Shown: positions 21,794 through 44,879 of the stretch, piece by piece | Numbering within the stretch: the first letter of the stretch is position 1 | Layout: each line of letters opens with the position of its first letter | DNA from: Cladosporium halotolerans | Taxonomy: Eukaryota | Assembly: GCF_011745625.1 (NCBI RefSeq) | Contig: NW_027191477.1 | Span: 310,001 to 363,274 of the forward strand | Direction of reading: 5' to 3' | Length of the DNA: 53,274 nucleotides | The notes under the pieces: model-generated | Database searches by the model: none | What the model was told of the DNA's origin: nothing | Seen by the model: the letters and a program-made list of their open reading frames with translations, nothing else | Made by a program: the position numbers and the translations under genes

Positions 21794-24607
21794 TCAAGCT
21801 TGGACAGAAACACCATTCGACCCTCCAGCGCCCGCTCTGCGATTCTTGACCGCGCCAGGGCGATTCAGAGTGTACTTGGCAAAGGCGCGAGCCAAAGCCT
21901 TCTTGCACGACACCTTCTGGCTGCCAACGAAGCTGTCGACGGCCACGGCAATGGCGCGGTCGATGTCGGAAGCGTTACAGTATTCTGAGAGACGCATCTT
22001 CGCGAAAGATTCGGAGATACGGAGGATAGACTCAAGGTGACGAACCTGGAAGATGTGGTTAGTATGGCAGTTCGGCGCAGGCGGCACACAGGTGAGGACT
22101 TACAGTGATGGGATAGGCGCCAGTGGCAAGCGACTCGCGACGCATGTCCGCAAACAATCGCGCAATCTTGTCCTGGTCGATCTGGTACAGCTTAGGCCTG
22201 CACCTCTCGCGGGCATAGAGGATGTACTTCCTCAACAGCTCTTGCGGGATTTCAGTTGTAGGCGTGGCGGCGGCGCCGTTGTCTTGTTGTTCCGGCTCGT
22301 CGACGTGCATGCCATCCTCGTTCGCCGCGGTGGCTTGAGATTGCGAACCTAGTGCTGAGGACATGACGGGGTGGGCACGACCGTGGCTGTTCACCACGAA
22401 CTTTGCCAAGCGCTCATCTTCGGAAGGATCGACGGTATCGCGGACGACACACAGGATGTCGAAACGAGAGAGGATGGGTTCCGTGAGCTCGACGTTCTGG
22501 CTGAAAGGCACGGTGCTGTTGTAACGACCGCCGATGGGGTTGGCGGCAGCAACGACAGCGCAGCGAGCTTGCAGTGTAGTCACGATACCCGCCTTCGAGA
22601 TAGAGATCGTCTGCTGTTCCATTGCTTCGTGGATGGAAGTGCGATCCTGGTCGTTCATCTTGTCGAACTCGTCAATCAAGCAAGTTCCCTTGTCTGCAAG
22701 CACGAGGGCACCACCTTCCAGAGTCCATTCAGCCGTGAGCGGATCTCTCCTGACACTAGCAGTGAGACCGACAGCCGAAGCACCTTGACCTGTGGCGAAA
22801 ACGGCGCGGTGGGCAGTATTTTCGATGTACTTTAGGACTTGGGACTTGGCCGTACCAGGATCACCAAGGAGCAAGATGTTGATGTCACCACGTAGAACGT
22901 GCTTGCCAGAAGCCACCTTCGCAACACCACCAAAGAGCGACAATGCAACTGCGGTCTTGATGTCTTCATGGCCATAGATCGACGGAGCAATCGATCGGAT
23001 GAGCTTGTCGACAATCTTGGGATCGCGGCTCAGAGCGCGGATCTCCCTCTCGTCCTCTTCTGTCAGTCTGAAGCCAGCCAGTTGATCGTGGCTCTTGACG
23101 ACGTAATTAGCTTCAATGACGGTGGCAAAAACGGGGAAGCCGTTCTTGTTGTTCAGCTGAGCGTCGTAGCTGTTGCGATAGATACCAGTGATCTCAACTT
23201 CCTCGCCAGGCTTTGCGGAGTCAATCAAGTCCCAAAGAAGAATGACCTCACGGTGTCTAGGGAGACGACCGGCGGGAACTGTACCAGGAGACTCTTGCAG
23301 AGTCAGTTTCTGGTAGTTGCGGTACACAGTCTTCTCGCTGTTGACTGTGAAAGGTCCGCGAGACTGACAGTTCTGGCAAAAGCTAAGCTTGACCTCAGAG
23401 TGACTGTCCTGATGGAAAGGCCCGAGTGTGATACCACACTTGGTGCAGTCGAATTTGACATGCTTCAGCTGCGGGAAGACACCCGTTCTGCGGGTGACAA
23501 CACCTGAGACACGGAGCAGGGAGTTCAGATGGTTCTGACGGAGCTGGCGCAAGGTCAGGGAGATGGGCAAGTCCGTCATGCGGACGTGCAGTTCAGAGTG
23601 GATGCGCTCGTAGTCCGGGTAGTGGTAAAGTGTGACGTCCAGAGCGACAGCGTCGAAGATAGGCAAGATTGAAGAAGGCACCTGAGCGACAAACATACCC
23701 AAGACCGGCTTGGAATCTGAAAGGTGCACCCAGGAAACTTCGAGAGACTCAGCGTTGACTTCACCGAGTGTCCTGATACGGACACCATAAACGGATGTGC
23801 CCTTCTCGTCAGTGTATTCGGTGAGGAAGTTCTTGAACTCCCTAGCAATTGTTCGCGAGACCGAAGGCTGGGCGACCCATTCCACCAGGGAAGCAGCCTT
23901 CACATCCATCAGTGCCTCAAGCGAGAGCTCCTCGTTCATGATGTCCTCTGCCATGTCCATGTCCTCTTGATCTTCGTCGTAGCGGTGTCTCCTGCGACGC
24001 GGCTGGCGTGTCAATTCCATGATGTCGTCCTCTTCATCTTCAGGAAGTAGAGCAGCTCGTGGCAGATTGCGTTGGCGAGCGAGCTCTCTATCTCTGCGGT
24101 TGAGACGAGCTTCGAGCTGTCTTCGCTGCGCCATATCCATGTCATCGTAATCGCCCTCGTCGTCGATGTCGTTACCACGATATTGGTTGTTCTCGGTGCG
24201 CTCGTAATCGTTCTCGAAATTGTCGGCAAAGAGATCAATGCCAGCGTCATCCTCGGCCATCTCGTCGAGATCATCGATATCCTGGAGCAGCTCATCCTCG
24301 GGGTCCAGGTTGTTGTCCTCGTCGTCCATGTCCATGTCATTTTGGGGAAACACTGGCGGGGAGGAAGCAGGGGCTAAAGGAGAATTGTCAGTTTTGATAG
24401 GTCTTCAATCAATACGCATCTCTATGTACTTACGACTCGAAGGCGGCGCAGCGTTGGAAGAAGCATCCTCATCTGCCTCCCTTCCTCTTTTCCGCCCTCC
24501 TGGCGCAAGTCCACGGTTGGCGGAAGACATGTTTGGTCGCAGCGGGGAACTTTTTGCAGACAGCGACTCTGTTCGAAGATTGCCTTGTATCGTCAGCAAT
24601 ACCTCAT
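21794..24607 (-). CDS. MCM2: DNA replication licensing factor MCM2
   Basis: Zn finger CTKC..CQNC, Walker [17 protein letters not shown] and SRFD. Introns 24433-24374 and 22103-22046. Probable 5-nt first exon ATGAG (24607-24603) with intron 24602-24550 giving MSSPLR; alternative ATG at 24530. Confidence 0.97.
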
Positions 24608-29118: not shown

Positions 29119-30366
29119 GTCTGCTCTTGACCTGGCATGACCACAAAGCGAACGTCAAGTTTGCGCGATTGTGAATTGAGTGAATGGCGTTTGGGGGAAG
29201 GTCAGGCTGTGCGATTGCGGCTTGCCGATTGCCTGCCTGCATGCGGCGGCATTACGGAGTCAGACATGTGAATGACATGCCAGTCCGTATTCTGACAGTG
29301 AATGGGGATTCGAGCGTCAGAACGAATGACATGCAACTGGACTGGCGGACTATGTCAGTCTTGCGGGATCTTGTAAGACAGAATTAGACATATTATAGAT
29401 GTAGACCTACAGTGGCGCCAGCGGTTTGAGGCCCAATCGCAGTAGAGCGTCGCCATTTACGACTGCGCAACGTTGAGGATTATTTACATACTGCTGCTTA
29501 GCCGTGAGCAAGCACGTTTACATGTCGACCGACGCTACCTACCAGCGCGTGTCAAGCGGACTGGCGGGATGGCCATTCAAGACCGTTGTCGCATTCGCAG
29601 GTAATTCGGATATGGTGACGAGGTCAAATGGAGTCTGGAGCCCGATTCGGCTTGTGTCTTCTCCAGTGCCCCGCGGTACCGCGGAGCAGACTGATGAAAA
29701 TTATCTCGTCGTAAAGACGGTGGGGTGGCCAAAAATTCCCACACGATCCGAAGACCATGTGAAGCAGTCAGTTGATAGTTTTCAACTAGCAAAAACGCAA
29801 TCTCGGACGAATCCTCACTGATATGCGTAATGCCCTTGCACTCGGATGGGGAAAGGAAAGTCTAGCACGAAAGGGGGCGTTGTGAGGTTGATATAGACTG
29901 CCCGAAAGCACGAGCCAGCCAAGTCTTGGCGGGGGCAGGCAACGATAGGCAACGAGCCCTGACTCGACGTTCACGTGTGTAACTCACTACGCTGGTACTT
30001 CACTTCACTGCTGCAGGCTGCAGTCCTTTCACTTGTGAAGGCGCCTGTACCAGTACAATCCACGTGACAGTCTTCACCTCGATCAAATCAGGTCGTCTGA
30101 TGCAGCGAATGGCGCCGCGTGCAATCTCGACGCTTACATGGCAAAGTTGAGGCCCGATGACGGACTCTAGCATCATCACATGGGCGAAGATGCCCCGTCC
30201 ACGCTTTGTGTCGGTGCCCAAGATGGCAAAAAGTAAAAGTGAGAGCGCAGGCGATCCTTGACCTCGGATCGATATCCTGATGATCATCTTCTGCACTTTC
30301 TTTTATCTCCGAATCTGACTTCACCCACAAGAAAGCACGGGCTGCTAGGTCTCTCGAGTCACAACC

Positions 30367-31300
30367 ATGACCAATGGCTCGCATTACTCTGCGCAGCGCG
30401 GCGCACTGGTGATATTTGGCTCTGGACCTGGCATCGGCGTGCACGTCGCCTCTCGCTTTGCACGGGGCGGATTCGAAAAGATCGTCTTGCTGTCTCGCAA
30501 TCAGAGGAGGCTGAGTGACGACGCGTTCATCGTGTATTCGAACGCGCCGCAGGTGCAAGTCAGCACGATCACCGTGGACTTGACGGTACCGGCGGATTTA
30601 GATCGCGCTCTGCAAGAGATTGAGTATATTCTCGCTGGGACGCCGATTGAATGCGTTCATTATGGTAGGTGGTTCACTGAAGTCACATGTGTACGATTTT
30701 CTGATATCTTTGCAGTATGTCTCACTGTTCACAACGGTTCGCCAGCAGCTGAGCGAATGTTTAATCTCCGTGACAATCTCATTGTAAGCTTGAGCTTCGC
30801 GACTAACCAGATGCTTGTAGAACGCTGCAAAGACCTCAGAGACTTGGCTGCTTCGAGAATCTGCCGAAGGCCTGAGAAAGAACCTCGAGCTGTCCGTCAT
30901 CAGTCTCTACACGGTTGCTCAATGGGCAACGCCACAGCTCCTGCATCTCGCAGGCAGGCAAGAGTACAAGCCGGCGCTGCTGGTGACGAGCGGCTGGCTC
31001 GCTCATGCGCCGGAACCAAACTACTTCGCGCTGGGCGTGTGCAAATCGGCGCAGCAGAACGTCGTCGTCAGCCTGCACAACCAGCTCCGGCCGCAGGGCG
31101 TGCACTGCGCACTTGTGATGGTCAACAACCACGTGAGCGAGGACGCCAACGAGACGAATCCCTCCAACATCGCCGAAGAGAGCTGGAGGCTCTACAGTCA
31201 GCGCCCTGATTCGATGGCACTCGAGACGAACATCGACGAGCCGGCCGGCGACTTCGTGCAGGACTTCCCGTGGATTGATGGATGGGTGGATGGGGAATGA
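30367..31300 (+). CDS. Short-chain dehydrogenase/reductase-like protein
   Basis: Rossmann motif IFGSGPGIG. Exon 30367-30663 (...ECVHY) joins exon 30821-31300 (NAAKT...LLVTSG...YFALGVCKSAQ) across a complex intervening sequence at 30664-30820. Confidence 0.85.
30664..30820 (+). other. Predicted [D1,2] stwintron (intron nested in donor of another intron)
   Basis: Structure is G | GTAGGT...CTGAT...TTTGCAG (30665-30715) | TATGT...CTAAC...TAG (30820). Removing the inner intron creates a GTATGT donor. Confidence 0.75.
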
Positions 31301-31358
31301 TTCTGACATTCGTGTCTACATATCATGTTCGTCGCGTCGTCGTAACATCTACATCCAT

Positions 31359-32903
31359 CTACGCGGCGCTCTTGGGCTCGCCGCCATTGACCGGCGTCGC
31401 GGCAGCGGCAGCCGCAAGTCTCTTCTTGCTCACGACCCTGAAGCCACCGACCACTAGGATCAATGCCTCGAGGCCCAGGACGACCGCAAGGGTGACCATG
31501 GCGCCGATGACGCCGTTCACGGCCGGGCTGAGACCGTTGCCGCTCTTCTCTCCAGAAGAGGCAGAAGCTGAAGCGCCGTCGTTGCCCGAGCTCTCCGACG
31601 CATACGCGGCGCAAGTTCCATCGGTTTCGCCGCAGATGGTGCACCAGTGCTCGTTGTCGCGGATGGCGAAGTTGTCCATGCCGGCGGTGAACTCCTTCCA
31701 GCTGATGGCAGTCTGGCCAGAGCCGAAGAGGGGGTACGGGGTCGGCTCGGACTCGTTCGTCGCGGTGCCGTTGGAGAACAGGAAGCGGACGTAAATCTCG
31801 TCCTCGGACGGGTAGTTGTCGGCGGAGACGGTCACGGAGGAGTTGGTGAAGAGCTCGAAGGTCATGGAGCTGGCGTAGTCGACGACGCCGCGGAAGTCGT
31901 CGTTGACGTTCTGCAGGCCGGCGAGACCAAAGAATGAAGCGAAGGTCGCGTACGCGCCGAACTGGACGCCGATCTTCTGCTTGCCTTCGCTGGTGATGGT
32001 CTTGTTCAGGAACTCGACAATCTCGCCCGCGAGCACCATGGCACTGATGGCGCGGACATTCTCGGTGGCGCTCTCGCTCTCGTTGTAAGCGAGGCCCCAC
32101 TCGTGAGCGTTTGCCAGCCCAGTGAGCTGTTCGAAGCTAGTGTTGTTGATCAGGTCGGAGCCTCCGTAGGTGGAGTTGTGGATCTGGGCCACGTTGATAA
32201 GATCCCAAACTGAATCTCGTTAGCAACTGAATGTAAACATCTGGATTTCAAAAACACTGCAATACTTACTAGTGTAGGCATTCTTGTAGCTGATCTCGCT
32301 CTCGTTGAATGTACGCTCGAGAGCAGGGGTCAGACCAGTGTAGAAATCCTGAGTGCTCGCCAGCAGGTCATTATACTCCTTGCTGGAGAAGTACTGGTTC
32401 GAGCTGATAGTGGCTTGGCCACAGCCAGTGGCGCTCTGCAGCCAAGCGTTGTTCTCGCTATCAGTGCCGCTGTCGACTTGCGTGACGGGAATAAGCTGGT
32501 AGCCGTCCAGCGGGGCAGTGATCTCGGTACCGTTCCTGAGAGTCGTGGTGGCCAAGTCATCGCCGACGGGAGGGTACAGGCCCTGAAGGAAGCCCATAGT
32601 GGAGTCCTGAAGGACAACATCTTCCGGAGAGGACACGGCGATCTGCGTCTGCTTGACGATGTCGGGGTTGACGCCGTTGATGCGGAAGTCGGCGTCCGGG
32701 GCGATATACCTGCTGCGGTAGTACTGTCCAGATCTGTGGACTTCCTCGTAGCCTAGGCCGGTGAAGTTGGCGGGAGGAGTCATCTTGGCCGTGCGGTCGC
32801 CATGGCGGTGGAACATGTAGACACCGATGACCTGCTCATCGTTACTGCTCTGAGCAAGAGCGATGGGGAGCGCCGTGAGAGCGAGGGTGGTGAGCGACAA
32901 CAT
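31359..32903 (-). CDS. Histidine acid phosphatase-family protein, secreted/membrane-anchored
   Basis: Signal peptide, RHGDRT catalytic motif, intron 32269-32210, and a C-terminal TM helix (GVIGAMVTLAVVLGLEALILVV). Confidence 0.88.
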
Positions 32904-33826
32904 CTCTGCAGATCCTGGATACCGTGGGAGAAACTCGAGAAGAGGAAACGAGAGGTGGGAGGAGCTTTATCGTAATCTATTATACCGAAGCTGCCGACTG
33001 TCGGGTCGGGTTCCATTGCAACGCTACTGCATATCCATGTTACCTATGACTGCCGTCTCTGACACGGAAATACACCATCCGCTTGTGATTCGCTATCAGT
33101 GGTAGTATCTGCGGTGCAATGGAGCGGGGCCCTGCTCTCAACTGCGGCCACTGATCCGGTAGCGCTCGAGCTTCTCCTCGCTTGACCATCTAGCGCGCCA
33201 ATGGCTTGCAGCAGGAAGTGGGTCAACCATATATCTAGCGGGCGTCGATGGACAAGAAAGAAGCAAAGCGATCGACGAATGCTTTGAAAAACCTATTGAG
33301 GCTTTGTTGCCGCGGGAAGGCTTCGAGAGTATGGAAAATCCGTTCATTGGCTCCCGATATGATAAGTTGGAAGCATTCGGTTGAGGAAGCCGCCCACTTT
33401 CGGAGCAAAACACCGTACAAAGAGTCATTCTGCGCACATGTCCGGTCCCAGTCAGCTTTGCATGTGGGTCTAATCGCCTTAAACCCCAGCCGAACACCGG
33501 AGGACGCGCCTAGGGCTATGCCCGCCTTGTGCGCGTTGGTAAGGCCAGACCTCGCGGCGTGACTGCCTAATCGAGCTAAACGGCAGCGAGGAGGTCCGGA
33601 GGTAGCAAAAGCAATGAAAGCTGATAAGATAAGGTAGGCATTACCGGATACCTTACACCACCGCGGAGAACTGGGTTGAAATGCTCTACAAGTGATATGT
33701 AAAGATTGATAGCACCAAGGAATTGTATGGGTAGTCTAGGAGAACCCTGTTTGATGTAGATATATACAGAAAAACATCTTACAAGAAGCGAAGTCTATTA
33801 TATGGTAGCAGAAATACGAGCAGGAC

Positions 33827-34838
33827 CTACTCTTTATCTTGGAGGAACTCGACGACAGCTTGATGATCATTAGCAAAGTGAAGTTGTCTTTGGGGGACGA
33901 AAACGACTTACCTTTCCTGAAGTCTTCAGGCTTCTCCGAAATGACCCAATGGCCACAATCAACGTCCGCCAGCTCGAATCGAGGGAAGAATCGTCCCACT
34001 GTCGGCAGCATCTCATCCGCAACATAGTGGCTCTTCGTTCCTCTTACGAAAAGCGCAGGGCCTTCCCATCGTGCCTCATCCGGATTGTTGAATGGGAAGT
34101 CGGCCATGTTGTTCAGCGCGTCTGAAAGGTACTTGATCGGAATGCGCCACTTCATCACTCCGTCGGGACCTCTCATAAGGTTGGTGAGCAGAAACTGGCG
34201 AACGGGCATGGACTCCTCGTACTCCTTCAGAACCGCATCCGCCTCGCTCTGCTTCTTGAAACCCGCCTCCTCAATCTTCTTCATGCCCTTTACGTACTTC
34301 GCAAAGCCACTGTGCAGTGCAGCATCCACAGGCGCATTGTCGACGCTGATCAGATTGCTGATCGGGGTCTTCTTCCGCAGCGCGACAGCCATAGCAGTCT
34401 TCGCGCCCATCGAGTGTCCAATCAGCGTGCTGTCCTTGATGTTCTGCTTCTCCAAGAAGCCCTCCACATCCTCGGCGAGGGCAGTGTAGTCATGTCTAGG
34501 GTCGTGCGACGAGTCGCCGTGGTTTCGCAAGTCGATCGCGTAAACGGGTCGGTTCAGCTCGCGGGCAAAGACCCTGGTCGTTCGTGAGCGGCGTGGTCGC
34601 GTGGGAGAGCGCGGGCTGGAGCGTACTTACTCATGCTCCCGTTGTTTCTCTTCGAGCCGAACAGGCCGTGGATGAAGACGATGGGAGCATCTTTCGCGGT
34701 GGCCTCCTTCGCGGGCTCGAAGAAGTCGTACGCGATCTTGACGCCGCTGCCGAGCTCGGTTGTCGAGAAAGGGCGGAGCGCGTTAGGTTTGATGAAGGGC
34801 TGCTGGACGCGCAAGAGCCCTGCTCTGCGAGCGAACAT
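33827..34838 (-). CDS. Mitochondrial alpha/beta hydrolase (ABHD11-like)
   Basis: Presequence-like N-terminus. Motifs HGLFGSKRN, DLRNHG, GHSMG nucleophile and GHWV. Introns 34626-34574 and 33911-33859. Confidence 0.88.
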
Positions 34839-35069
34839 CTTCGTCGCGGTCGTGCAAGGGTTTCCTGAATGCGCCGGCTGGGTGTTGATCGGCTCCAAAC
34901 AGCCCCTCCGCGCGCGAAACAAATTCTGAAAGTTCCCAGCGATCACCGAGCTGCCCACCAACAACGTCATATGCTCCCTCGACTATCAGCTCTCAAACGA
35001 ACGGCGCCCACATTCTTGCGCCATACTAGGATTGCAAATACCACTGCGACTTTCAGAAGAATCACCACG

Positions 35070-35663
35070 ATGCTTCGCACCGAACCAAACATCATCATCA
35101 CCGGCACGCCTGGCACCGGCAAGTCCACGCACTGCGAAGAGCTTGCAAACAGAACCGGCCTGCACCACCTGAGCATAAACGACGTCGTGAAGAAGCACAG
35201 CATCGGCGAAGCCTCAGACGACCCCGAAGACCCGAACCTCCAGATCGTGGACGAAGACCGTCTGCTGGACTGCGTGGAGAATGATCTCGAGGAGGGCGGG
35301 CAGATTATCGACTGGCACGCTTGCGACCTGTTCCCTCCGAGCATGATCGATCTGGTCTGCGTGATTCGCTGCGACAACGGTGTGCTCTACGATCGCCTGA
35401 AAGCGCGCGGCTACAGTGGGAAGAAGCTGGAGGAGAACATGGACTGCGAGATCATGGAGGTGCTGCTGAACGAGGCGCGGGAGGCGTACGATGAGGAGAT
35501 CGTGGTAGAGCTCAGGAGCGAAAAGACGGAGGAGATCGATTCGAATGTGGACAGGATCGAGCAGTGGATCAAGAACTGGAAGAAGGATCACGGCAAGGAT
35601 GGAGAGGCCGCGGCGCAGTCTTCTGAGAAGCCAGAGGACGACCCTAAGTTCTTGCACGGTTAA
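35070..35663 (+). CDS. FAP7: Adenylate kinase 6 / Fap7
   Basis: PNIIITGTPGTGKST P-loop, IIDWHACDLFP, LYDRLKARGY..KLEENMDCEIM. An in-frame upstream ATG is present at 34971. Confidence 0.93.
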   Translation: MLRTEPNIIITGTPGTGKSTHCEELANRTGLHHLSINDVVKKHSIGEASDDPEDPNLQIVDEDRLLDCVENDLEEGGQIIDWHACDLFPPSMIDLVCVIRCDNGVLYDRLKARGYSGKKLEENMDCEIMEVLLNEAREAYDEEIVVELRSEKTEEIDSNVDRIEQWIKNWKKDHGKDGEAAAQSSEKPEDDPKFLHG

Positions 35664-35729
35664 GAGAATCTATTGACGACGTCTATCATATTCTGCGTTT
35701 GCTGCGGGCAAAGTTTCCTACGCGCCCAT

Positions 35730-36537
35730 TTACACCTCCTGCTTGAGCCACTCAACGAGCTTCGCGAGCGCTCTTCCGCGGTGAGAGATCTTGTTCTTCT
35801 CCGCCTTGGGCATCTCAGCGTACGTCTGGCCTTCGTACTCAAAGCATGCGTCCCAGCCTTGAAGAGATCGTTAGTATTTGCTTTCGGACGGGCAACTATC
35901 GAAAGATTTCTCACCAAAATCAGTCGGCCCGCGAGCCGCGACAATTTTGCCCTTCAATCGCAGTCAGTACTTGGCTCTAATGTAGATAGCATATCCTGAA
36001 ACTTACCGGCGTCCTGCCCTGAAAGACGATCGGCTCATGGCCGGGGCTCTCGCAGTAGGCGAAGGTGCACACTGCCTGAGCGGACTTGTTCTCGAAGCCC
36101 TCGAGCAGCTTATGGAATTGCTCCACGCCGAGAGCCTTGAGGAACCATTTTCTATAGGATCAATCCATGTCAGAAAATTAATTCGCACAAGTAATATTTC
36201 CTCGGTGGTTTTACATACACGTAAGGACCAGGCAGCTCGCTGAACGCATCAAAGCATAAGCATGTGTCCTCGACCAAAACCGGGCCCTTGACCTGTATTG
36301 TGCATCGTCAGTCCTGAGTCACCACCCAATTACGAAACCTAGTGAGGTCAGTGAGTGCCATACCGCCTCAGCAGCCCTCCGACACTTATCCGTCGAAATC
36401 TCCTCGATCGTGCCCTGGATCTCGACTAGATCGACGTTCTGCGACTGCAGCTGCACGGGCGTCTCGGACAAGATGGCCTGCACCTCGGCGAGCTTGTTCT
36501 TGTTGCCGGTGATGAAGTTGAGCTCTTTGGGCGCCAT
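35730..36537 (-). CDS. HAM1: Inosine triphosphate pyrophosphatase
   Basis: [30 protein letters not shown] and KNKISHR motifs. Introns 36363-36293, 36218-36152, 36006-35952 and 35914-35858. Confidence 0.95.
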
Positions 36538-37135
36538 TGTGATTTTTTTTTTGAGGTAGAATGTGTCTTCAAAGTGTGACGTTGATTGAGGAGGAAAGGT
36601 TTACAATCCTCGCGAGATATTACGTGCAGTATGGCGGGGCAGCAAGATCGGAAGCGCTTTATCTATGGGGAAACGCGAGGATCAAGAATGGCGTCAAGGG
36701 ACTCAGCCGAACAATATATACCCTCTGGAATACTAGTATCGATTCTCTACATGCTAGAAAAGGAAACAGCGCCGTCACGTTTCTGGACACCGCAGCTTCG
36801 GCGTTGCAGTGGGGCTTGGCCGGGTGTGACATTTTCTTTGATGTTCTCTGCCAATGCGGAGTGAACTGCAATTGCAGTGGCTGCGATGGTTGAGTGATCA
36901 AAACGTGTAGTGAGGCCGGAGAACAGTATGGGTATCAAAAGAAAATCGTTTCGGCAGCAAGAATACGGGACAGGCATTGTGACTTTCGAACCGATTTCTT
37001 GACTCCGTGGCTAGTTACGTCGCATCTATTGCCGCAATGCTAGCACTGAGAAAATGCACTGCTAACGCCGATAACTTTCCACGTTTCGAAGGCGGCGCGC
37101 CGCCAAAAACTCATCCCATCATCCTAGCGTCCCGC

Positions 37136-38042
37136 TTACACAGACTCAAGAACGGTCTCCTTGAACTCACGCTCAACCTTCTGGCCAGACTCGTCGGTGG
37201 TGGACTCGCCGTGGAGGGAGAGGAGGTTGCCGAGGTCGAACTTGGGGGCCTTGAGGAGCTTGACCTTGCGGACGTGGACCTAAAGTGATTGTTAGAAATG
37301 CGCGCAAGATGAACAATTCGCCGATACGTACGTCGCGCAGAGGGTAGATGCCCTGGGTGGCCTTCTCAATCTCACGGCCCATAACCTCAGGAATGAGCTT
37401 GGTGGTGAGCTGGCTGAGGGTGCAGCTGGAAGCCTCCCTCGACATGATGTCCACCATCTTCTTGCGGATCTGGCGGATCTGGGAAGACCGCGCGTAGGTG
37501 GTCTTCTTGATCTGGTTGGGGCGCCTCTTGGTGAAGGCAATGGCGAAAAGACGGAGGAGGTAGTCGTCGGTGGTCTTGACGACGACGTTGGCCTCGATCA
37601 GGCTCTGCCACTTGCGGACGAGGGAGGCGAGCTTGTCGTGGGTGAAGTCCAGACCGTAGAAGTTGGTCAGGCAGTTCTTGCCCTGGACCTCGTCGACGCG
37701 CAGCTTGATCTTGCGGAAGCTGTGGTCCTCATCCTTCTGGAGATCGGCGAGGGAAGCCTCGAAGACACGGCCCTTGAGAGAGTCGTTGGCGTTCTTGAGA
37801 CCGGTGGTGCGGTTCACGAGGGTCTTGCCGACACTGGCAGAGTGTTAGTACGGTGTTCTCAATTCCCCAGCGCTCTTTTCTCGTCCGGTGCGATCGGTGG
37901 TGGGTGGTGGTGCGGCGTACTCTCTGATGGCGAAGGTGGAGGGGGCCTTGACGGAGTACCAGTCCTTCTTCGCGAAGGGGTCGGTTCTCTTCTTCAAGCC
38001 CTTCTTGCCCTTGGACAATCTCTTGTTCTTGCCAACCGCCAT
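37136..38042 (-). CDS. RPS1: 40S ribosomal protein eS1 (S1/S3A)
   Basis: Starts [18 protein letters not shown]. Introns 37920-37834 and 37331-37280. Ends ...ETVLESV*. Confidence 0.98.
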
Positions 38043-38711
38043 GTTTGCGGAATGTCAAGAAGCTGTAGATTAGTAGTGGTTGTCGGCGACGTCGTGGTCA
38101 AGCAAAGTCTCGAAATTGCGCTGGATGCAAATGGAGGCTTTCGCTTTGGACTCGCCAAGCCTGAATTCGTGCCCACCATGAGCGTCGCACTCGCGGATGC
38201 TGCCGCTCTTCCCGCTGCCGCTGCCGTCGAGCGATTCCGATGATCAGCCGAAGCTGTTTTTGAAGACGGCCGATGATGAACAAAATTGACGGAGCCAGAC
38301 TCCGACTGCACTCAAGATTCCTGATTTGCCTGAAGCCTCACAGTCAATGCATGGGAAGAAATTGGACCTCGTCTATCTGAGCCATACGGATGACATCCCT
38401 CACGTGAGATGGACGGCCTCTCAACATCTTCAATGTTCCACAGAATACGCCGTGCGGTACAATCGTCTCTATCAAGATCAAGCGGACCAGATATTGCTTG
38501 CAGTACGGCGGATCCAATGATGTCGTCGATTGATTCCATTGACAAGCACAAGGTTCTTTCGGCGTGAAACACATATTCGTAAATCGTCTAGTTTACGGCT
38601 CCCTACCTATCCTCACACCCTCTAGCCATCACCACCCTCCTCAGCACCACTCATTCCCTCACTCCCTTACTCCCTTACTCTCCTCACCTCCCTCTCTCTA
38701 CCTCACCCAAA

Positions 38712-41228
38712 TCAAACCTTTCCCTTCTTCCCCTCAAGCGTAGTATCCATATCATAAAGCGGCTCGAGCGTAGCATCCTTGCGCTGCAGCACCCACCTCT
38801 TGAACCACCACGGCGCGGCCTTGCGCGTCTGGTACGCGATAAACTTCTTGCCGGGAACGGCGAAGATGTAGTCGAGCTCCTCTAGCGTGCGCTGCTTGGT
38901 CTCAGGCACGAAGAGGAAGATCATCACAAAGGCGCAGACGTTCAGGCCTGCATAGAAGCCGAAAGCGCCTGGGGAGGGAGGTGTGTTAGTCGGTGGGATT
39001 TGAAGGGGAGGAGAGTATAGGCGGGCTTACCGGTCGGTGTGAAAGCAGCTAGGATGGCAGGGAAAGAGATCGAGAGCACAGCGGCCCAGAACAGGCAGGT
39101 GGCGACGGCCCAGCCCATGCCGACTTCGCGGTGACTGAGCGGGAAGACTTCTGCGGAGTAGGTGAAGGGCACTGGGCCCTCGCCGGGGGAGTAGAAGGCC
39201 GCGAAGAGGTAGATGAAGAAGGCGACGAGTCCCAGGTGAGCTTTGCTCTCGTTCGGGATGTAGAAGCAGAAGCCAGCTGCGAGCAGAGTCCAGGCCATGT
39301 TCGGGAAAGTAAACAGAAGTAGCGACCTGCGGCCGAAGGTGTCGATGGTCCAGATGGCGGGCTTGGATGACTGTCAGTGGCCGTAACGGTCTGAAATTTT
39401 CAATATCATGTGCTTACCCAGGCGAAGACGAAGTTGACCAGACCAAATCCGAAGCTGGCAATCAGGGCGTTGCGTTCGCTAGCGCCCGCCTGCCTGAAGA
39501 CGGTAGAGCTGTCTGTTCACAGAAAGGTCAGCTATTGAATCTATCTCAGTGCTCTATGATGAGGAGGCTTTGAATCTCTCAAGCGTTGTGAGGTGCACGA
39601 AAAGCCCCGAAAGACGCCAGTTGACAAGGGTCATTGGGTAGCTTGTGCTGCGTCGGAACGTGGACATACTGCAAAGAGGTTAGCATTGACCGTCAATTCT
39701 AATGGTGTGAGTTTATTCGCTTACCAGAAAGCAATGATATTGATGCCGCACTGTACCAAACGGTTAGCTTCATTTCACCATGTTCCGCAGATACGAGTAA
39801 CTCACCATTTGCTGCGCAATCATGACAACGAAACTAGCCAGCGTGGCACGCCTGACGCGAGGAATGGTGAAAAGCTGGAGGAAACGAGACACGTAGTTGG
39901 TCTTGCCGACGATGCTGGCCTCAATCTGGAGCTGACAGTGAATATAGTACAGGTCGCGAGCGGCTTGAATCGGGTGGTGACGAAGGCGGAGGAGAGACTT
40001 GTATGCCTTCTGGTAACGGTTCTTCTTCATGTACCATCTGGGCGATCTGACATGGCGTGTTAGCAAGATGAGGGCTGCACTGAAAGTTTCACACCTCATT
40101 CTGGACTCACTCTGGACAAAAGTATATCCCGATCGTCAGCGGCACTGCCGGGATGAAAGCAGAACCAATCTGGAGGCGCCAGGCGATATCACCGACTTGG
40201 TAGACAGCGAGGTTTGCACAGAAGCCTAAGAAGATTCCAAAAGCCGTCCACATTTGCCAAGACATGACCAGTGCGCCTCGAATCCTTGCTGGAGAGTTCT
40301 CTGCGGCGAAGATAGGAACCGAGGAGCCCTTAAGGCCCATGCCGATGCCCATGAGAAGGCGAGTGATGAAGAGTTGTTCCCAGTTCTGGCTGACAGCACC
40401 GCCGATAGGGGTCAGAAGGCAGAAGATGGCGCTGATGAAAATTGTCTGGATGATTGTCAGACATCACTCTTGGGGAAGATGGGGCGGTCCGACTCACGCC
40501 TCGGCGACCGAAGTAGTAGTTGCAGGGGTCCGATACCCAGCAGCCGATGAAAGCACTACCTCACATCAGCAAATGAGCAGGTCTTAGTATTCCAGGCATC
40601 ATTGTCACCTTCCAATGTAGGGTCCAGCGTTGACAAGACCGACCAGCCAACTGTCGCGTACTTGGTTTGGTGCGCCTTCAGTCTCTCCTTCACCGATACC
40701 GAATTCCTGCGATGCCGTCAGATGAGGCGTGCTGGAATTGACCGTAGAGAATACATACGACAGGGAAACTGAGATTAGCACCGTTCGAACCAGTCTGGTC
40801 CCATCCTTGGACAGCGGCGCCGATTGAGCAGACGATAATGGTGAAGTAGAGCGCAAGAGGGTGCCTCCAACGATGGGCGGATTCAAAGCGCAGAGCCTCG
40901 CGCTCATCATCGGGCAGCTCGAGATTTTCGAAGTTGGTCGGGTCTTGCGCGATCAGGGCGCCTCTCTTGACAAGATCGGTGTGCTCCACAAGGCCTTTAT
41001 CGGAGCAGAAGGTCTCGACATCGTGCATAAGATCATTATACGAGATGTCCGCCAACGGGTTGGAGACTCTTAGCTTGTGGGTCAGCTGTGTGCTTGGAAA
41101 AAGAGGGTCTATTGCTTGCGCGAGGAAACTGACTTGGCGTCTAGGTTCTTGTTCAAGTTGATGTCGGCGAGAGATGAGCTGCGAACCGCATCCTCCTTCT
41201 GGATGCCGTTGGCTTCTTTCTCCGCCAT
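38712..41228 (-). CDS. MFS sugar porter (polyol/inositol/pentose transporter-like)
   Basis: Motifs [53 protein letters not shown] and [10 protein letters not shown]. Introns 41133-41069, 40758-40707, 40608-40556, 40497-40446, 40110-40047, 39805-39751, complex 39725-39513, 39417-39362 and 39030-38969. Confidence 0.92.
39513..39725 (-). other. Predicted [D1,2] stwintron
   Basis: Minus strand reads G(39725) | GTAAGC...GCTAAC...TTTGCAG (39724-39669) | TATGT...GCTGAC...CAG (39513). Two-step removal restores TTC T|AC AGC (F-Y-S). Confidence 0.85.
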
Positions 41229-43104
41229 GGTGTCTGGATAGAACAAAGATCACCTCGGCTGCTAGGATCACGAGGAATGAGGAGATACGCGAAACAATCG
41301 ACCTTACCTCGCGCGCGTGCCGCTGTATCATATATCCCTCTGACAGCTCGTCCGCGCTTTACCTTTATTGGCATCGATGGCTCAGAGACTTACTACCAAG
41401 ACCACGATCACCCACCCAGCATCGGGCGGGAAACCCCAGCATCGTTTCGGCGTGCCCATGGGGTCCTGCGTTGCGTACGCACAGGGTCGAGGCGCTTAGG
41501 TTTCGCCCTTGGCCATAGCGGTAAGCACACGACCGCGCTGAGTCTGTGACCGAAGAGGCTTGCCTTGTTATGCTTCGCTGCAGGCCAAGTGGAGGTCGTC
41601 CAAGAGGCTAAGACAATCGGCATTCCGATGGGCGAGGTGGTCCAGGCGGAGGCAAACGGCTCAAATATTGAGAGAATGCGGACATCGCCGACCGGTGCCC
41701 AACCAGCGGGGCGAGATGAAAAATAGTTTGGAGCAAATATACAAACTGTGATGCTGAAACGGTTTAGCACAGTCAGCAATACTTCTTCACAGTTCTGATG
41801 CGCTCGCCTGCGCTGTTCAGGCGATCAACCTGACCCCGCGCCAAGGTCTGGAGGTGGAGGTGCCCAGAAAACAAGCCGCTGGAGAGGTGCGGCGGCCGCG
41901 TTTCTGCTAAGGAGCGGCGAAATGAGCCTTGTCGGGAATTGGCAATCCGGACGCTGATGAAGGTGAACCCTGGCTAGGACATGTGACAGCGGCTGAGAGT
42001 GATAGTCTCCCTTCCCCACGGGCGATGAAGAGTGGAGATTCGTCTGGTCTCGACCCTATACCGGCTGGACGAAAGACCAGCCGCCGGCTTCACAAGCGTC
42101 CTAGTATCCCCAAGGACCCTCCACGGGAGAGCAGTTGCGGCTCCAGGATGGTCGCCGCGGGGCCGTTCTGGAGTTCTGGAGCAATCCAACGGGGTTGCTG
42201 AATGATGAGTCGGGGAGGCGGCCATGGTGGCTGCAAGCCACGAGTGGATGCCTCAAGCCACCGGTAATAGTGCTGGTGGACATCGCGCCCGGAAGGCGAA
42301 CCGTGCTCATGGCATCGTTACATTCGAGGTGATGTGCGTGGGCCTTGTCACCAGAACGTGGTATCGTGGTAGCCGCGTGCCGTTGAATCTGGGTAAGAAA
42401 TTCGTGTTGCTTGGTGTCTATGTTGGCGGTCTCGTTCGCAAGGAGGAAAACCCTTTGTGGGTGGCCCCTGCTCCTCTAACTGCTTCACTGATCTCTATTC
42501 ACTCACGACCAAGTGCATTGGGTCACACAGTTCTCCTTCGCATACATAGCATTTGTAGGCTGTGAGCGCCTGAGGCTGCTTTCACTTAGATTCCGCGGAA
42601 GCCGCCCAACGAGAGAGACCACAAAGTCGGCGCCGACCATAAACCCCACTTGCCTGTCGAGAGCGTGAGCTGATTGGAGCGCGGACTGCTCTAAGAACGA
42701 AGTCCCGCTTGACAACTTCAACGTTCATAGCGACGGTCCAAGGTGTAGAGAACCACACCTGTCAACACCCAGGGAACGCTTCCTGCTTTCGTGTGTGGTG
42801 CATTGAGCGGGCGAAACGCCAGAAAGAAAACACAGCATTCTCTTGATTACGTGCGGTCGTCCCCCGGTGTGGAGGCCGTTTCTCCTTTAGAGGACTTCGC
42901 ATTTCTTCAGTACTCCTTTCCATTGACTGCATTTTCATACGCATATACGCCTGGACTTCTGCATCAGATAAAGTTTTTTCTTTACACGGCGGCATTTTCC
43001 TGCGTTTTCCGGACTATTTATCGGAGATCAACATCGCGATCCAGGAGAAATCGCAAGCTTAGACGACCTACCGACACACCTTATTCACAAACCGCCTCGC
43101 CAAC

Positions 43105-44879
43105 ATGACAACTCCACCGCCACCAAATACCATGGCGCTCCGCGCAAACGCCATCTACGAAGCCTTCAGCGACCGACCCGTCCTGGCCTTAGCGATCCTG
43201 CTCGTCATCACCATCGCGATCACTCGGCTCCTCAGCTCCAAACAAGCCGACCAAAGCCCCAATGGCGCCAAACCCGTTCCCTCGGTCCCCTACACCCTTC
43301 CCATCATCGGCCACCTTCCTTCCATGATCTACGACGCGCAGAGCTTCACCCGACGACTCCGCGCGCTCTACCACCCGTCCGGCGCCTACAGCCTCAACTT
43401 CGGCGGCACGGTCCACAACATCCTATTCTCGCCACCCCTCGCGACGGCGCTGGTCAACGTCAAATCCGAGAACGCCAGCGAGCTCGAACTCTTCCGGGGC
43501 ATCATGGGCAAAGTCTTCGGCTTCCCGCTGGCGAGCGAGGGCCACAAGTACGACGAAGCCATCATCGGTCTGAACGCCCTGTACAAGAACTTCATGTCCG
43601 AGCCCGGGCTCGGCGACATGACGACCCGCACCGCGCAGCTGGTCAAAGAGAACCTCGCGAGCTTCGTCACAGGCTCCAAATCCCTTGTCGACCAAATGAT
43701 CTGGGAGCGCAACGCGGACGTCGAGATCAAGACCAACGCCAAGGGCGAGAAAGTGGTCGAGGCGAACTTCCTCGACCTCGTGCGCGACTGGAGCGCGACG
43801 TGCGCGAACCCGTCCATCATCGGCTCCGACTTCGGCCACAACTACCCGGAGTACATCCGCGACCTGTGGACGCTGGACGAGGGCTTCCTGCTGCTGGCCA
43901 CGGGCCTGCCGCGCTGGTTCCCCATCCCCGCGCTCACGCGCGCACACATTGCGCGGAAGAGCGTCACGGACAAACTGCTCGCGTTCGAGACCGCTATGGA
44001 CAAGTACGTCGCGGGCGAGGACCCGGGGCCCGACTGGCGCGACCTGGACGACGTGGGGCCCGTCGTCAGAGGCCGCATCGACCTGTACCGCAAGAAAGAC
44101 ATGAGCATGCAGGCGCGCGCCGCGACGGAGCTCGCGCTGCTCTGGGCCGCGAACGCCAACTCCAACCCGCTGGTCTTCTGGATGCTCGAGCGGATTTACG
44201 CGGACAAGGCGCTGCTGGCGCTGCTGCGCGAGCAGGTCGCGCCGTACGTGCGCGCCGTGCAGCCGCGGCAGGAGTTCGTCGTGCCGGACGCGCCGCGCCT
44301 GGAGAAGCTCGACATCGACGGCCTGTGCGCCAACTGCCCGCTGCTGAAGAGCTGCTACATCGAGTGCTTGCGCCTTGATGCCGCGCCGTGGAGTCTGAAG
44401 GTCGCGAAGAAGGATTTCGTGCTGTCGCCGAGGGACAAGGAAGTGCAGGGCATTGTGCTGCGCAAGGGCGAGTATGTCCACGTTGCGCACGACCTCCACA
44501 ATACCGACCCCAACGCGTTTGAGGACCCGGAGGTTTTCAAGGCGGACCGCCACGTGAAATATGATGAGAACGGCAAGGGCTCCGCTGAGATGGGGAGCAT
44601 GAGACCTTACGGTAAGTCTGACTGAGGTTCCCCAATGCACGGTAATCGCTAACTTTCATTCCTCCAGGCGGCGGCCACAGCATGTGCAAAGGACGCGCCT
44701 TCGCCTTTAAGGAAATCATGATCTTCGCCGCGTCTATCATCTCCATGTGGGACGTTGACGCGCCGAACGGCGGCGAGTGGAAACTGCCTAAGCAGCGCAA
44801 AGCGACCGCTGTCTACGGCACGGCAGACTCGACCAGAGTCTGGGTGAAGCAGAGGCAGCTTCCCGTGGTGCAGACGTAG
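43105..44879 (+). CDS. Cytochrome P450 (CYP7/CYP8-like type lacking I-helix Thr)
   Basis: N-terminal TM anchor, I-helix WAANANS, ECLR, and heme motif YGGGHSMCKG formed across intron 44612-44667. Confidence 0.92.

Follow-up and report, generated by a model that had tools for sequence, protein, structure and literature searches.

An identical composite splice junction in two [D1,2] stwintrons of a Cladosporium halotolerans contig

Gene structure and splicing of the two elements

The present analysis concerns a stretch of 53,274 nucleotides of Cladosporium halotolerans DNA (contig NW_027191477.1), referred to below as the window, in which two genes, about 9 kb apart and in opposite orientation, are each interrupted by a nested intron. 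The forward-strand gene encodes a short-chain dehydrogenase/reductase (SDR) and contains the element S1; the reverse-strand gene encodes a sugar transporter and contains S2 (Table 1). Both elements are genuine donor-disrupted spliceosomal twin introns (stwintrons) of the [D1,2] type, in which excision of an inner intron restores the outer donor from a split G (PMC8469720). At the point where the inner acceptor meets the rest of the outer donor, S1 and S2 share an identical sequence of 15 nt: this identity is real, is not produced by splice consensus, and may be a trace of common descent.

Table 1. Coordinates, signals and supporting evidence of the two stwintrons and their host genes in the window (a slash marks a junction)
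Feature	Position	Strand	Length, phase	Signals and content	Evidence
S1 host gene, SDR	30367..31300	+		two exons, 30367-30663 and 30821-31300	Pfam, homologues
S1, [D1,2] stwintron	30664..30820	+	157 nt, phase 0	start GGTAGGT, end TAG	
S1 inner intron	30665..30715	+	51 nt	donor GTAGGT; branch point TCTGAT 30700-30705; 7-nt spacer ATCTTTG; acceptor CAG	
S1 outer intron remainder	30716..30820	+	with G30664, a 106-nt intron	donor G/TATGT; branch point ACTAAC 30802-30807; 10-nt spacer; acceptor TAG	
S1 shared junction core	30707..30730	+		TCTTTGCAG/TATGTCTCACTGTTC; first 15 nt identical to S2	
S2 host gene, sugar transporter	38712..41228	-	614 amino acids	nine RNA-supported intervening sequences including S2	RNA joints, open reading frame, Pfam
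S2, [D1,2] stwintron	39513..39725	-	213 nt, phase 1	start GGTAAGC	RNA contigs
S2 inner intron	39669..39724	-	56 nt	donor GTAAGC; branch point GCTAAC 39684-39679; 7-nt spacer CTCTTTG; acceptor CAG	
S2 outer intron remainder	39513..39668	-	with G39725, a 157-nt intron	donor G/TATGT; branch point GCTGAC 39532-39527; 11-nt spacer; acceptor CAG	
S2 shared junction core	39656..39677	-		TCTTTGCAG/TATGTCCACGTTC	

The anatomy of the type is complete in both elements, from the GGT start through inner donor, branch point and acceptor, to a G that together with TATGTC gives GTATGT, and on to an outer branch point and acceptor. The published search expression for [D1,2] stwintrons (PMC9024468), applied to both strands, has exactly two matches in the window, S1 and S2, the latter only when the outer distance is allowed to be longer, as in the authors' model C. 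A relaxed stwintron scan, filtered for open reading frames (ORFs; 40 open codons on each side), missed even S1 and S2, and its single match overlaps a verified ordinary intron. Neither S1 nor S2 is flanked by a target-site duplication.

Excision of S2 is exact, as proven by RNA contigs. The joint 39512-39726 is present in contigs of X6 (depth 1740) and X5 (depth 1109), which skip 213 nt; X6 and X5 are two runs of one study and are RNA-like, their contigs crossing 13 ordinary GT..AG introns of 52-87 nt between positions 24000 and 43999. The ends of the skipped segment are CT..CC on the forward strand, and hence GG..AG on the gene strand: two nested canonical reactions can yield such a joint, and no single one can. 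A contig of X16, a run from another study, has a loose end at 39512, which reads on into the upstream exon with one base change and agrees with the S2 joint. Upon removal of S2 and of eight ordinary introns, the transporter becomes one ORF of 614 amino acids, matching Pfam Sugar_tr on two exons (1.6e-23 and 8.1e-20), and the S2 site falls inside the Tyr codon (T/AC) of ...IIAF-Y-SSTVF....

A canonical alternative, GT39724..AG39509, is available at S2. Its removal in one step would take out 216 nt and stay in frame, because S2 ends ACAG/ACAG, and the protein would read AF-C-STVF; the form seen in the RNA contigs is the 213-nt one, giving AF-YS-STVF. The splicing intermediate lacking the inner intron only ("splinter") is not among the 15 joints listed, and contigs drop rare forms.

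For S1, the evidence comes from reading frame and homologue alignment, on which it is judged to be a real [D1,2] stwintron. The two exons of the host have Pfam matches, the first to KR/adh_short and the second to adh_short_C2, with the S1 site lying between the codons ...CAT TAT / AAC GCT...; excision of the 157 nt joins ECVHY/NAAK, a sequence which is uninterrupted in the homologues P0003 (ECVLYNAAR) and P0007 (ECVYYNAAR), and a GT-to-AG removal of 156 nt would produce a frameshift. The inner intron is at the low end of the size range of the 13 RNA-verified introns. The S1 exon joint is not among the 15 RNA joints listed, beyond which 13 further joints exist; a contig of X15 runs from 30792 into SDR exon 2, and no conclusion on S1 splicing is drawn from it. 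The best named homologue of the SDR host, with 71% identity, is from a Cladosporium species (a Dothideomycete), and DNA nearly identical to the window is found in air and dust metagenome runs. The first-pass annotation of this DNA had proposed both structures as stwintrons, in phases 0 (TAT/AAC) and 1 (T/AC), and was correct on both counts.

In the proposed organization, the donor of a longer outer intron is split after its first G, and an ordinary short intron, of 51 or 56 nt, is seated there, ahead of the T. The spliceosome would initially excise the inner intron, using its GTAGGT or GTAAGC donor, its branch point, the 7-nt spacer and CAG; the stranded G, brought next to TATGTC, would then form the outer donor GTATGTC, and a second splicing reaction would take out the outer intron. 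We infer this two-step order. Given the nested anatomy, which calls for two reactions, the 15-mer would act as a single site used twice, as a 3' splice site and subsequently as the rest of a 5' splice site.

The shared junction

The 15-mer TCTTTGCAGTATGTC, that is TCTTTGCAG/TATGTC, had been pointed out at both junctions by the first-pass annotation, and is confirmed at 30707-30721 on the forward and 39677-39663 on the reverse strand. These are its only two occurrences in the window, even when up to two mismatches are allowed; the expectation from shuffled sequence is 0.09 matches, and two or more were obtained in none of 100 shuffles. The likeness extends, just as originally described, with two one-base gaps: in the alignment of TCTTTGCAGTATGTCTCACTGTTC with TCTTTGCAGTATGTC-CAC-GTTC, 22 of the 24 columns are identical. 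The local alignment score of this tract, 34, was reached by 1 of 1000 dinucleotide shuffles.

The appropriate null is anchored on splice sites, two junctions being drawn at random from the acceptors and donors of the window itself. With the 13 RNA-verified introns, the product of the per-position match values for 15/15 is 3.4e-6, and the best among 12,168 pseudo-junction pairs is 13/15, found in 2 pairs. With 73 motif-defined intron-like sequences, 15/15 was reached in 16 of 2,000,000 sampled pseudo-junction pairs, and none of 2,628 real intron-like pairs had a local score above 25, to be compared with the 34 of S1-S2. Taken together, these nulls put the 15/15 identity at about 3-8 x 10^-6, so that, at a level of about 1e-5, ordinary splice-site composition does not account for it by chance.

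It had been cautioned that about 8 of the 15 nt are dictated by splice consensus. This figure turns out to be too generous to chance, because AG and T(+2), with G(+5) in most cases, are the only constants among the verified introns, which amounts to about 4 of the 15 positions. The GTATGT donor is used by only 1 of the 13, and the spacer before the acceptor follows no consensus. Even with CAG/TATGT taken as given, a match at C(+7) and at all six spacer bases would still have a probability of about 1e-4, by arithmetic from the per-position values.

Orthologous elements in related fungi

In the window, frame 1 is open for 286 codons (30349-31209, forward strand), running through exon 1, all of S1 and an out-of-frame exon 2. 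The ORF calls of relatives P0014-P0016, which follow the same course through S1, are thus chimeric proteins containing a translated stwintron, and can be used to follow the element: nucleotide changes in S1 and S2 orthologues are minimum counts, inferred from the translations of such calls.

P0014, 96% identical, keeps the junction translation IFAVCLTV. P0015 and P0016 have an exon 1 close to 90% protein identity and an intervening sequence at the S1 position, which starts with GRWFT or GRRFT, corresponding to GGTAGGTGGTTCAC with 0-1 change. Their junction reads ILTVRLMV or ILAVRLIV, which fits CAG/TACGT; at least five (P0015) and at least three (P0016) changes fall in the 24-nt core, as compared with at least about 30-38% nucleotide change, plus indels, in the S1 body outside the core. 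By these translations, the S1 core evolves more slowly than the intron body, yet it does vary, even in the type of donor.

P0014-16 have an intervening sequence at the S1 site, as P0005, P0006 and P0010 probably do. The site is empty in P0017-22 and P0007, which read through it with a sequence of the ECIHYNAAK form; this distribution would fit gain as well as loss. Intron positions in the SDR gene turn over among relatives. In P0017-P0022, the ORFs end their run after ...NLEV, about 25 codons beyond the S1 site, at a point of continuous coding in the window.

For S2, the sole orthologue seen, P0026, was obtained through an antisense ORF; it contains the element, and the five codons inside the 15-mer are unchanged in it. 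One change is found at 39678, just upstream of the 15-mer, and another at 39659, in the extension, and at least 9 changes are found in 75 nt; at this divergence, simple arithmetic gives 15 unchanged bases by chance in roughly one case in seven.

The annotated Cladosporium homologue P0008 is without the two residues HY that precede the S1 site (30658-30663). Such a gap would be expected from a predictor forced onto canonical GT..AG borders around a GG..AG element, and stwintrons may be systematically mis-modelled in such genomes.

Further searches around the two elements

Both outer introns contain TCACAACG (30729-30736 in S1, 39591-39584 in S2) and GCTTGAG (30788-30794 in S1, 39584-39578 in S2). 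The first-pass annotation had listed these words among the shared features: they are indeed present, and as marks of a family or of a signal they were rejected, being at the chance level: the outer remainders have three words of 7 nt (P=0.098) and one of 8 nt (P=0.14) in common. The 14-mer AGTATGTCCACGTT at 44471-44484 on the forward strand, an exact match to the S2 junction, was likewise set aside as a chance occurrence, located within a P450-like coding exon. The exon around it reads ...GEYVHVAHD..., and a heme-binding-type motif is found further on.

Metagenomes were scanned with GGTANG-N(25-55) followed by the 15-mer: 18 loci were retrieved, mostly bacterial-looking and none of them related to the window by blastn or tblastx, in a scan that did not recover S1 and S2 either and is therefore uninformative on the existence of a family. 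The region 30300-40100 has 0 matches in Rfam at E<=1, and an embedded RNA gene was rejected.

The 9-mer at the S1 inner acceptor, TCTTTGCAG (30707-30715), is the perfect complement of CTGCAAAGA at 30825-30833, 5 nt inside SDR exon 2, in codons for Ala-Ala-Lys. Pairing of the core with its flanks was considered and discarded: a complement as good as this 9-bp one is found for about 10% of other stretches of the region, and the S2 core has no partner longer than 5 bp.

A general likeness of intron ends in the window, which would indicate intron families, was not found. Two verified transporter introns (39362-39417 and 40446-40497, reverse strand) have in common CTGACA[G/A]TCATCCA (13/14), spanning branch point to acceptor; this tail match is the best of 136 intron pairs and is borderline against the null (P about 0.07). 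With nine intervening sequences in 2.5 kb, the transporter is probably unusually intron-dense for a Dothideomycete gene. Upstream of its start codon (41228), a segment of 56 nt at 41507-41562 is missing from contigs of X6 (depth 482) and of X5 (depth 18.5); its ends, CC..TG, are non-canonical and have a 5-nt ambiguity: a non-canonical intron, a deletion variant and an assembly artefact are the candidates.

Origin of the shared junction

We give slightly less than even chances to the reading that the junction segment is homologous, S1 and S2, or at least their cores, deriving from one ancestral sequence. The composite site would, in that case, have been kept longer than the remaining, fast-diverging sequence of the elements. 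In its favour, the coincidence is large, intron bodies decay fast, the core evolves more slowly and the S1 site is occupied patchily; patchy occupancy among relatives is the behaviour of propagated stwintrons (PMC12403724). As intron bodies diverge fast in this lineage, the loss of the remaining similarity between S1 and S2 is plausible. A more far-reaching proposal, which we regard as rather unlikely, is that the two elements are worn relics of a propagating [D1,2] family in a Cladosporium-type Dothideomycete, the core being its last signature, with hundreds of stwintrons in the genome. Hypoxylon genomes measure tens of megabases. Two stwintrons in 53 kb are far denser than the 117 of a Hypoxylon genome, which hints at a stwintron-rich genome; the earlier interpretation of the pair, which had included this suggestion, is overall partly supported.

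Several observations weigh against common descent. The likeness is one contiguous tract of 24 nt, with nothing beyond it: the 5' parts of the inner introns resemble each other at the chance level, their observed score being reached by 205 and 297 of 500 shuffles, and the same is true of the outer remainders (302 and 488 of 500), so that the initial remark that the rest of the two introns does not align obviously holds, shuffles scoring as well. A BLAST search of S1 and S2 against the window found the 15-mer as the sole cross-match, and no further copy. Terminal inverted repeats are absent from both elements, whose best self-complements are internal palindromes; neither has a stable fold, both folding worse than shuffles (z = +1.78 for S1, +1.34 for S2), of which 195 and 184, out of 200, fold at least as well. 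Among S1 orthologues, at least three (P0015) and at least two (P0016) changes lie inside the 15-mer. The split between S1 and S2 must predate this orthologue split with its at least 2-3 changes, and the total lack of changes between S1 and S2 is, for this reason, somewhat unexpected. The best-conserved part of S1 among its orthologues is, moreover, its 5' end, GGTAGGTGGTTCAC, which has only GGTA.G in common with S2: a conserved 5' end without a counterpart in S2 is not predicted for sisters that descend from one whole element and decayed differentially. Finally, the acceptor-side and the donor-side matches, with a score of 18 each, are singly ordinary among the 136 intron pairs; the rarity lies in both halves coinciding in one pair, S1-S2, and the statistics rest on this sample of one.

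The most serious competitor, doubtful as we hold it to be, takes S1 and S2 to have arisen separately and to have become alike at the junction by convergence, helped by luck. Few sequences would make good composite 3'/5' splice sites, and these would consist of a spacer that is short and rich in U, then CAG, then a GUAUGU-type donor needing no help from the exon side; the remaining identity would be coincidence. Such a preference is suggested by the 288 sequence-similar stwintrons ("sisters") of Xylariales, in which cag/tatgt dominates and several junctions read ...ttgcag/tatgt (PMC12403724), as well as by the 7-nt inner spacer, which is the commonest in Hypoxylon (PMC9024468). The lack of similarity outside the core and the ordinary character of each half-match taken alone also speak for convergence, and the unrelated 14-mer match at 44471-44484 shows that unanchored matches of such size do occur in the window. 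One difficulty is the value of about 1e-4 for the six spacer bases and C(+7), which is obtained even when CAG/TATGT is granted; in addition, verified introns have no preference for U-rich spacers. Nor is the set of allowed junctions narrow, because both the spacer and the donor (TACGT) of the S1 orthologue are of another kind, and the Xylariales sisters, belonging to one family, are not independent evidence of constraint.

Two further explanations were weighed. A tract of about 24 nt might have been copied from one stwintron to the other, 9 kb away and inverted, through templated repair, template switch or a short conversion. A likeness confined to an unbroken, perfect 15-mer and to the near-matches bordering it, at loci close to each other and in opposite orientation, fits such an event, which we nevertheless regard as very improbable: no flanking homology is present to start conversion, and the S1 orthologue in P0016, being compatible with 13/15 matches to S2, implies that the likeness predates the species split or that the copy is old. 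Copying events of this kind are usually described over much shorter distances. A dedicated signal, also put forward by the first-pass annotation, would make the core a binding site or structure that directs reaction order or marks stwintrons, and is kept by selection in all stwintrons of the fungus. The slower evolution of the core relative to the intron body between orthologues is what it would predict; the P0015/P0016 orthologue, however, has another type of donor and at least 2-3 changes in the 15-mer, and the absence of a common pairing partner, of an Rfam match in 30300-40100 and of a stable fold argues against it as well. As S1 has another junction (about CAG/TACGT) in a related species, the 15-mer is not an obligatory signal, and we consider this last explanation very improbable.

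Significance

The origin of new spliceosomal introns is an open question. Should the shared junction be a trace of descent, a common airborne Dothideomycete would become a second system in which to follow intron propagation, and "unique" stwintrons could be old copies of propagated ones. If a relic family were involved, multiplying nested introns would exist in a second, independent fungal lineage besides Xylariales. If the likeness is a coincidence, what is left is a pair of additional representatives of a known intron type. In any of these cases, S1 and S2 add to the established [D1,2] type, in a fungal class for which no report of the type was found in a literature search. They also illustrate how stwintrons mislead gene calling, as seen in the homologue without two residues at S1, in the ORFs running through S1 and in the unused canonical alternative at S2.

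Comparison with known intron systems

The closest published counterparts are the stwintrons of Hypoxylon sp. CO27-5, where 117 of the [D1,2] type were catalogued, 36 being sequence-similar sisters and 81 unique (Fekete et al. 2022, PMC9024468). S1 and S2 resemble the unique ones in many respects, including the GGU start, a normal-sized inner intron, a hybrid HAG/URWGY junction, an outer intron which is the length-variable part, sequences that, for the most part, are not notably alike from one element to another, and seamless integration with no target-site duplication (PMC9024468). The distance of 7 nt from inner branch point to acceptor, found in both, is the modal Hypoxylon value, and one of the Hypoxylon hosts is likewise a short-chain dehydrogenase, of about 250 amino acids (PMC9024468). 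A position common to this stwintron (no-7) and S1 is not supported, because no-7 is in phase two and S1 in phase zero. Unlike in Hypoxylon, the host belongs to the Dothideomycetes, the two elements lie within 9 kb, and their junctions are identical over 15 nt.

The sister stwintrons, 288 of which have been described in 14 Xylariales (Hypoxylaceae and Xylariaceae; Fekete et al. 2021, 2025, PMC8469720, PMC12403724), are thought to propagate (PMC8469720, PMC12403724). S1 and S2 have in common with them the [D1,2] type, a junction that is often cag/tatgt and the lack of target-site duplications. Sister positions are empty in related species (PMC12403724); the S1 site is vacant in part of its relatives, which gain or loss would equally explain. 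In contrast, sisters align over their full length and cross-match by BLASTN, while the tract common to S1 and S2 is only 24 nt long; sisters feature near-terminal inverted repeats, NTIRE-10 (5'-GUAUAAAAAC and its partner), which S1 and S2 do not have (PMC12403724). The distance from outer branch point to acceptor is 14 or 19 nt in sisters, leaving room for the 3' repeat, and 10 and 11 nt in S1 and S2, respectively; similarly, sisters start with GGTATGT and have an inner intron of about 85 nt, to be compared with GGTAGGT and 51 nt in S1 and GGTAAGC and 56 nt in S2 (PMC12403724). A word search of Table S1 of PMC12403724 returned six Xylariales stwintron sequences containing ttgcagtatgt with GCTAAC 8 nt upstream. 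The S2 junction region resembles some sisters of Xylaria arbuscula, AATGCTAAC...TTGCAG/TATGT, a likeness that was picked by word search from 288 sequences and is to be taken as a lead only (PMC12403724).

In the stwintron literature consulted, multiplication of stwintrons is so far documented only in Xylariales (PMC9024468, PMC8469720, PMC12403724). No link between Cladosporium and stwintrons was found in the literature searched, and the stwintron reports that mention Dothideomycetes concern other types or positions.

A composite site, used as an acceptor first and as a regenerated donor afterwards, is also known from the recursive splice sites ("ratchet points") of long animal introns. There, the donor lies wholly downstream of the AG (AG/GTAAGT), and splicing begins at the donor that belongs to the upstream exon. 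[D1,2] stwintrons differ from ratchet points in that the G is supplied from a place upstream of the inner intron, which has a donor of its own.

The introner-like elements of Dothideomycetes were reportedly described by van der Burgt et al. in 2012. S1 and S2 are unlike them in being nested, in having no further copy in the window and in folding worse than shuffles: introner-like elements are single introns, with many near-identical copies and stable predicted folds (Collemare et al. 2013, 2015; PMC3609843, PMC4457414). On the other hand, they too are hosted by Dothideomycetes and are longer than regular introns; they are gained at new positions and decay fast, beyond recognition, a behaviour which would explain how only the core of the junction could be left as a recognizable remnant in S1 and S2 (PMC3609843, PMC4457414).

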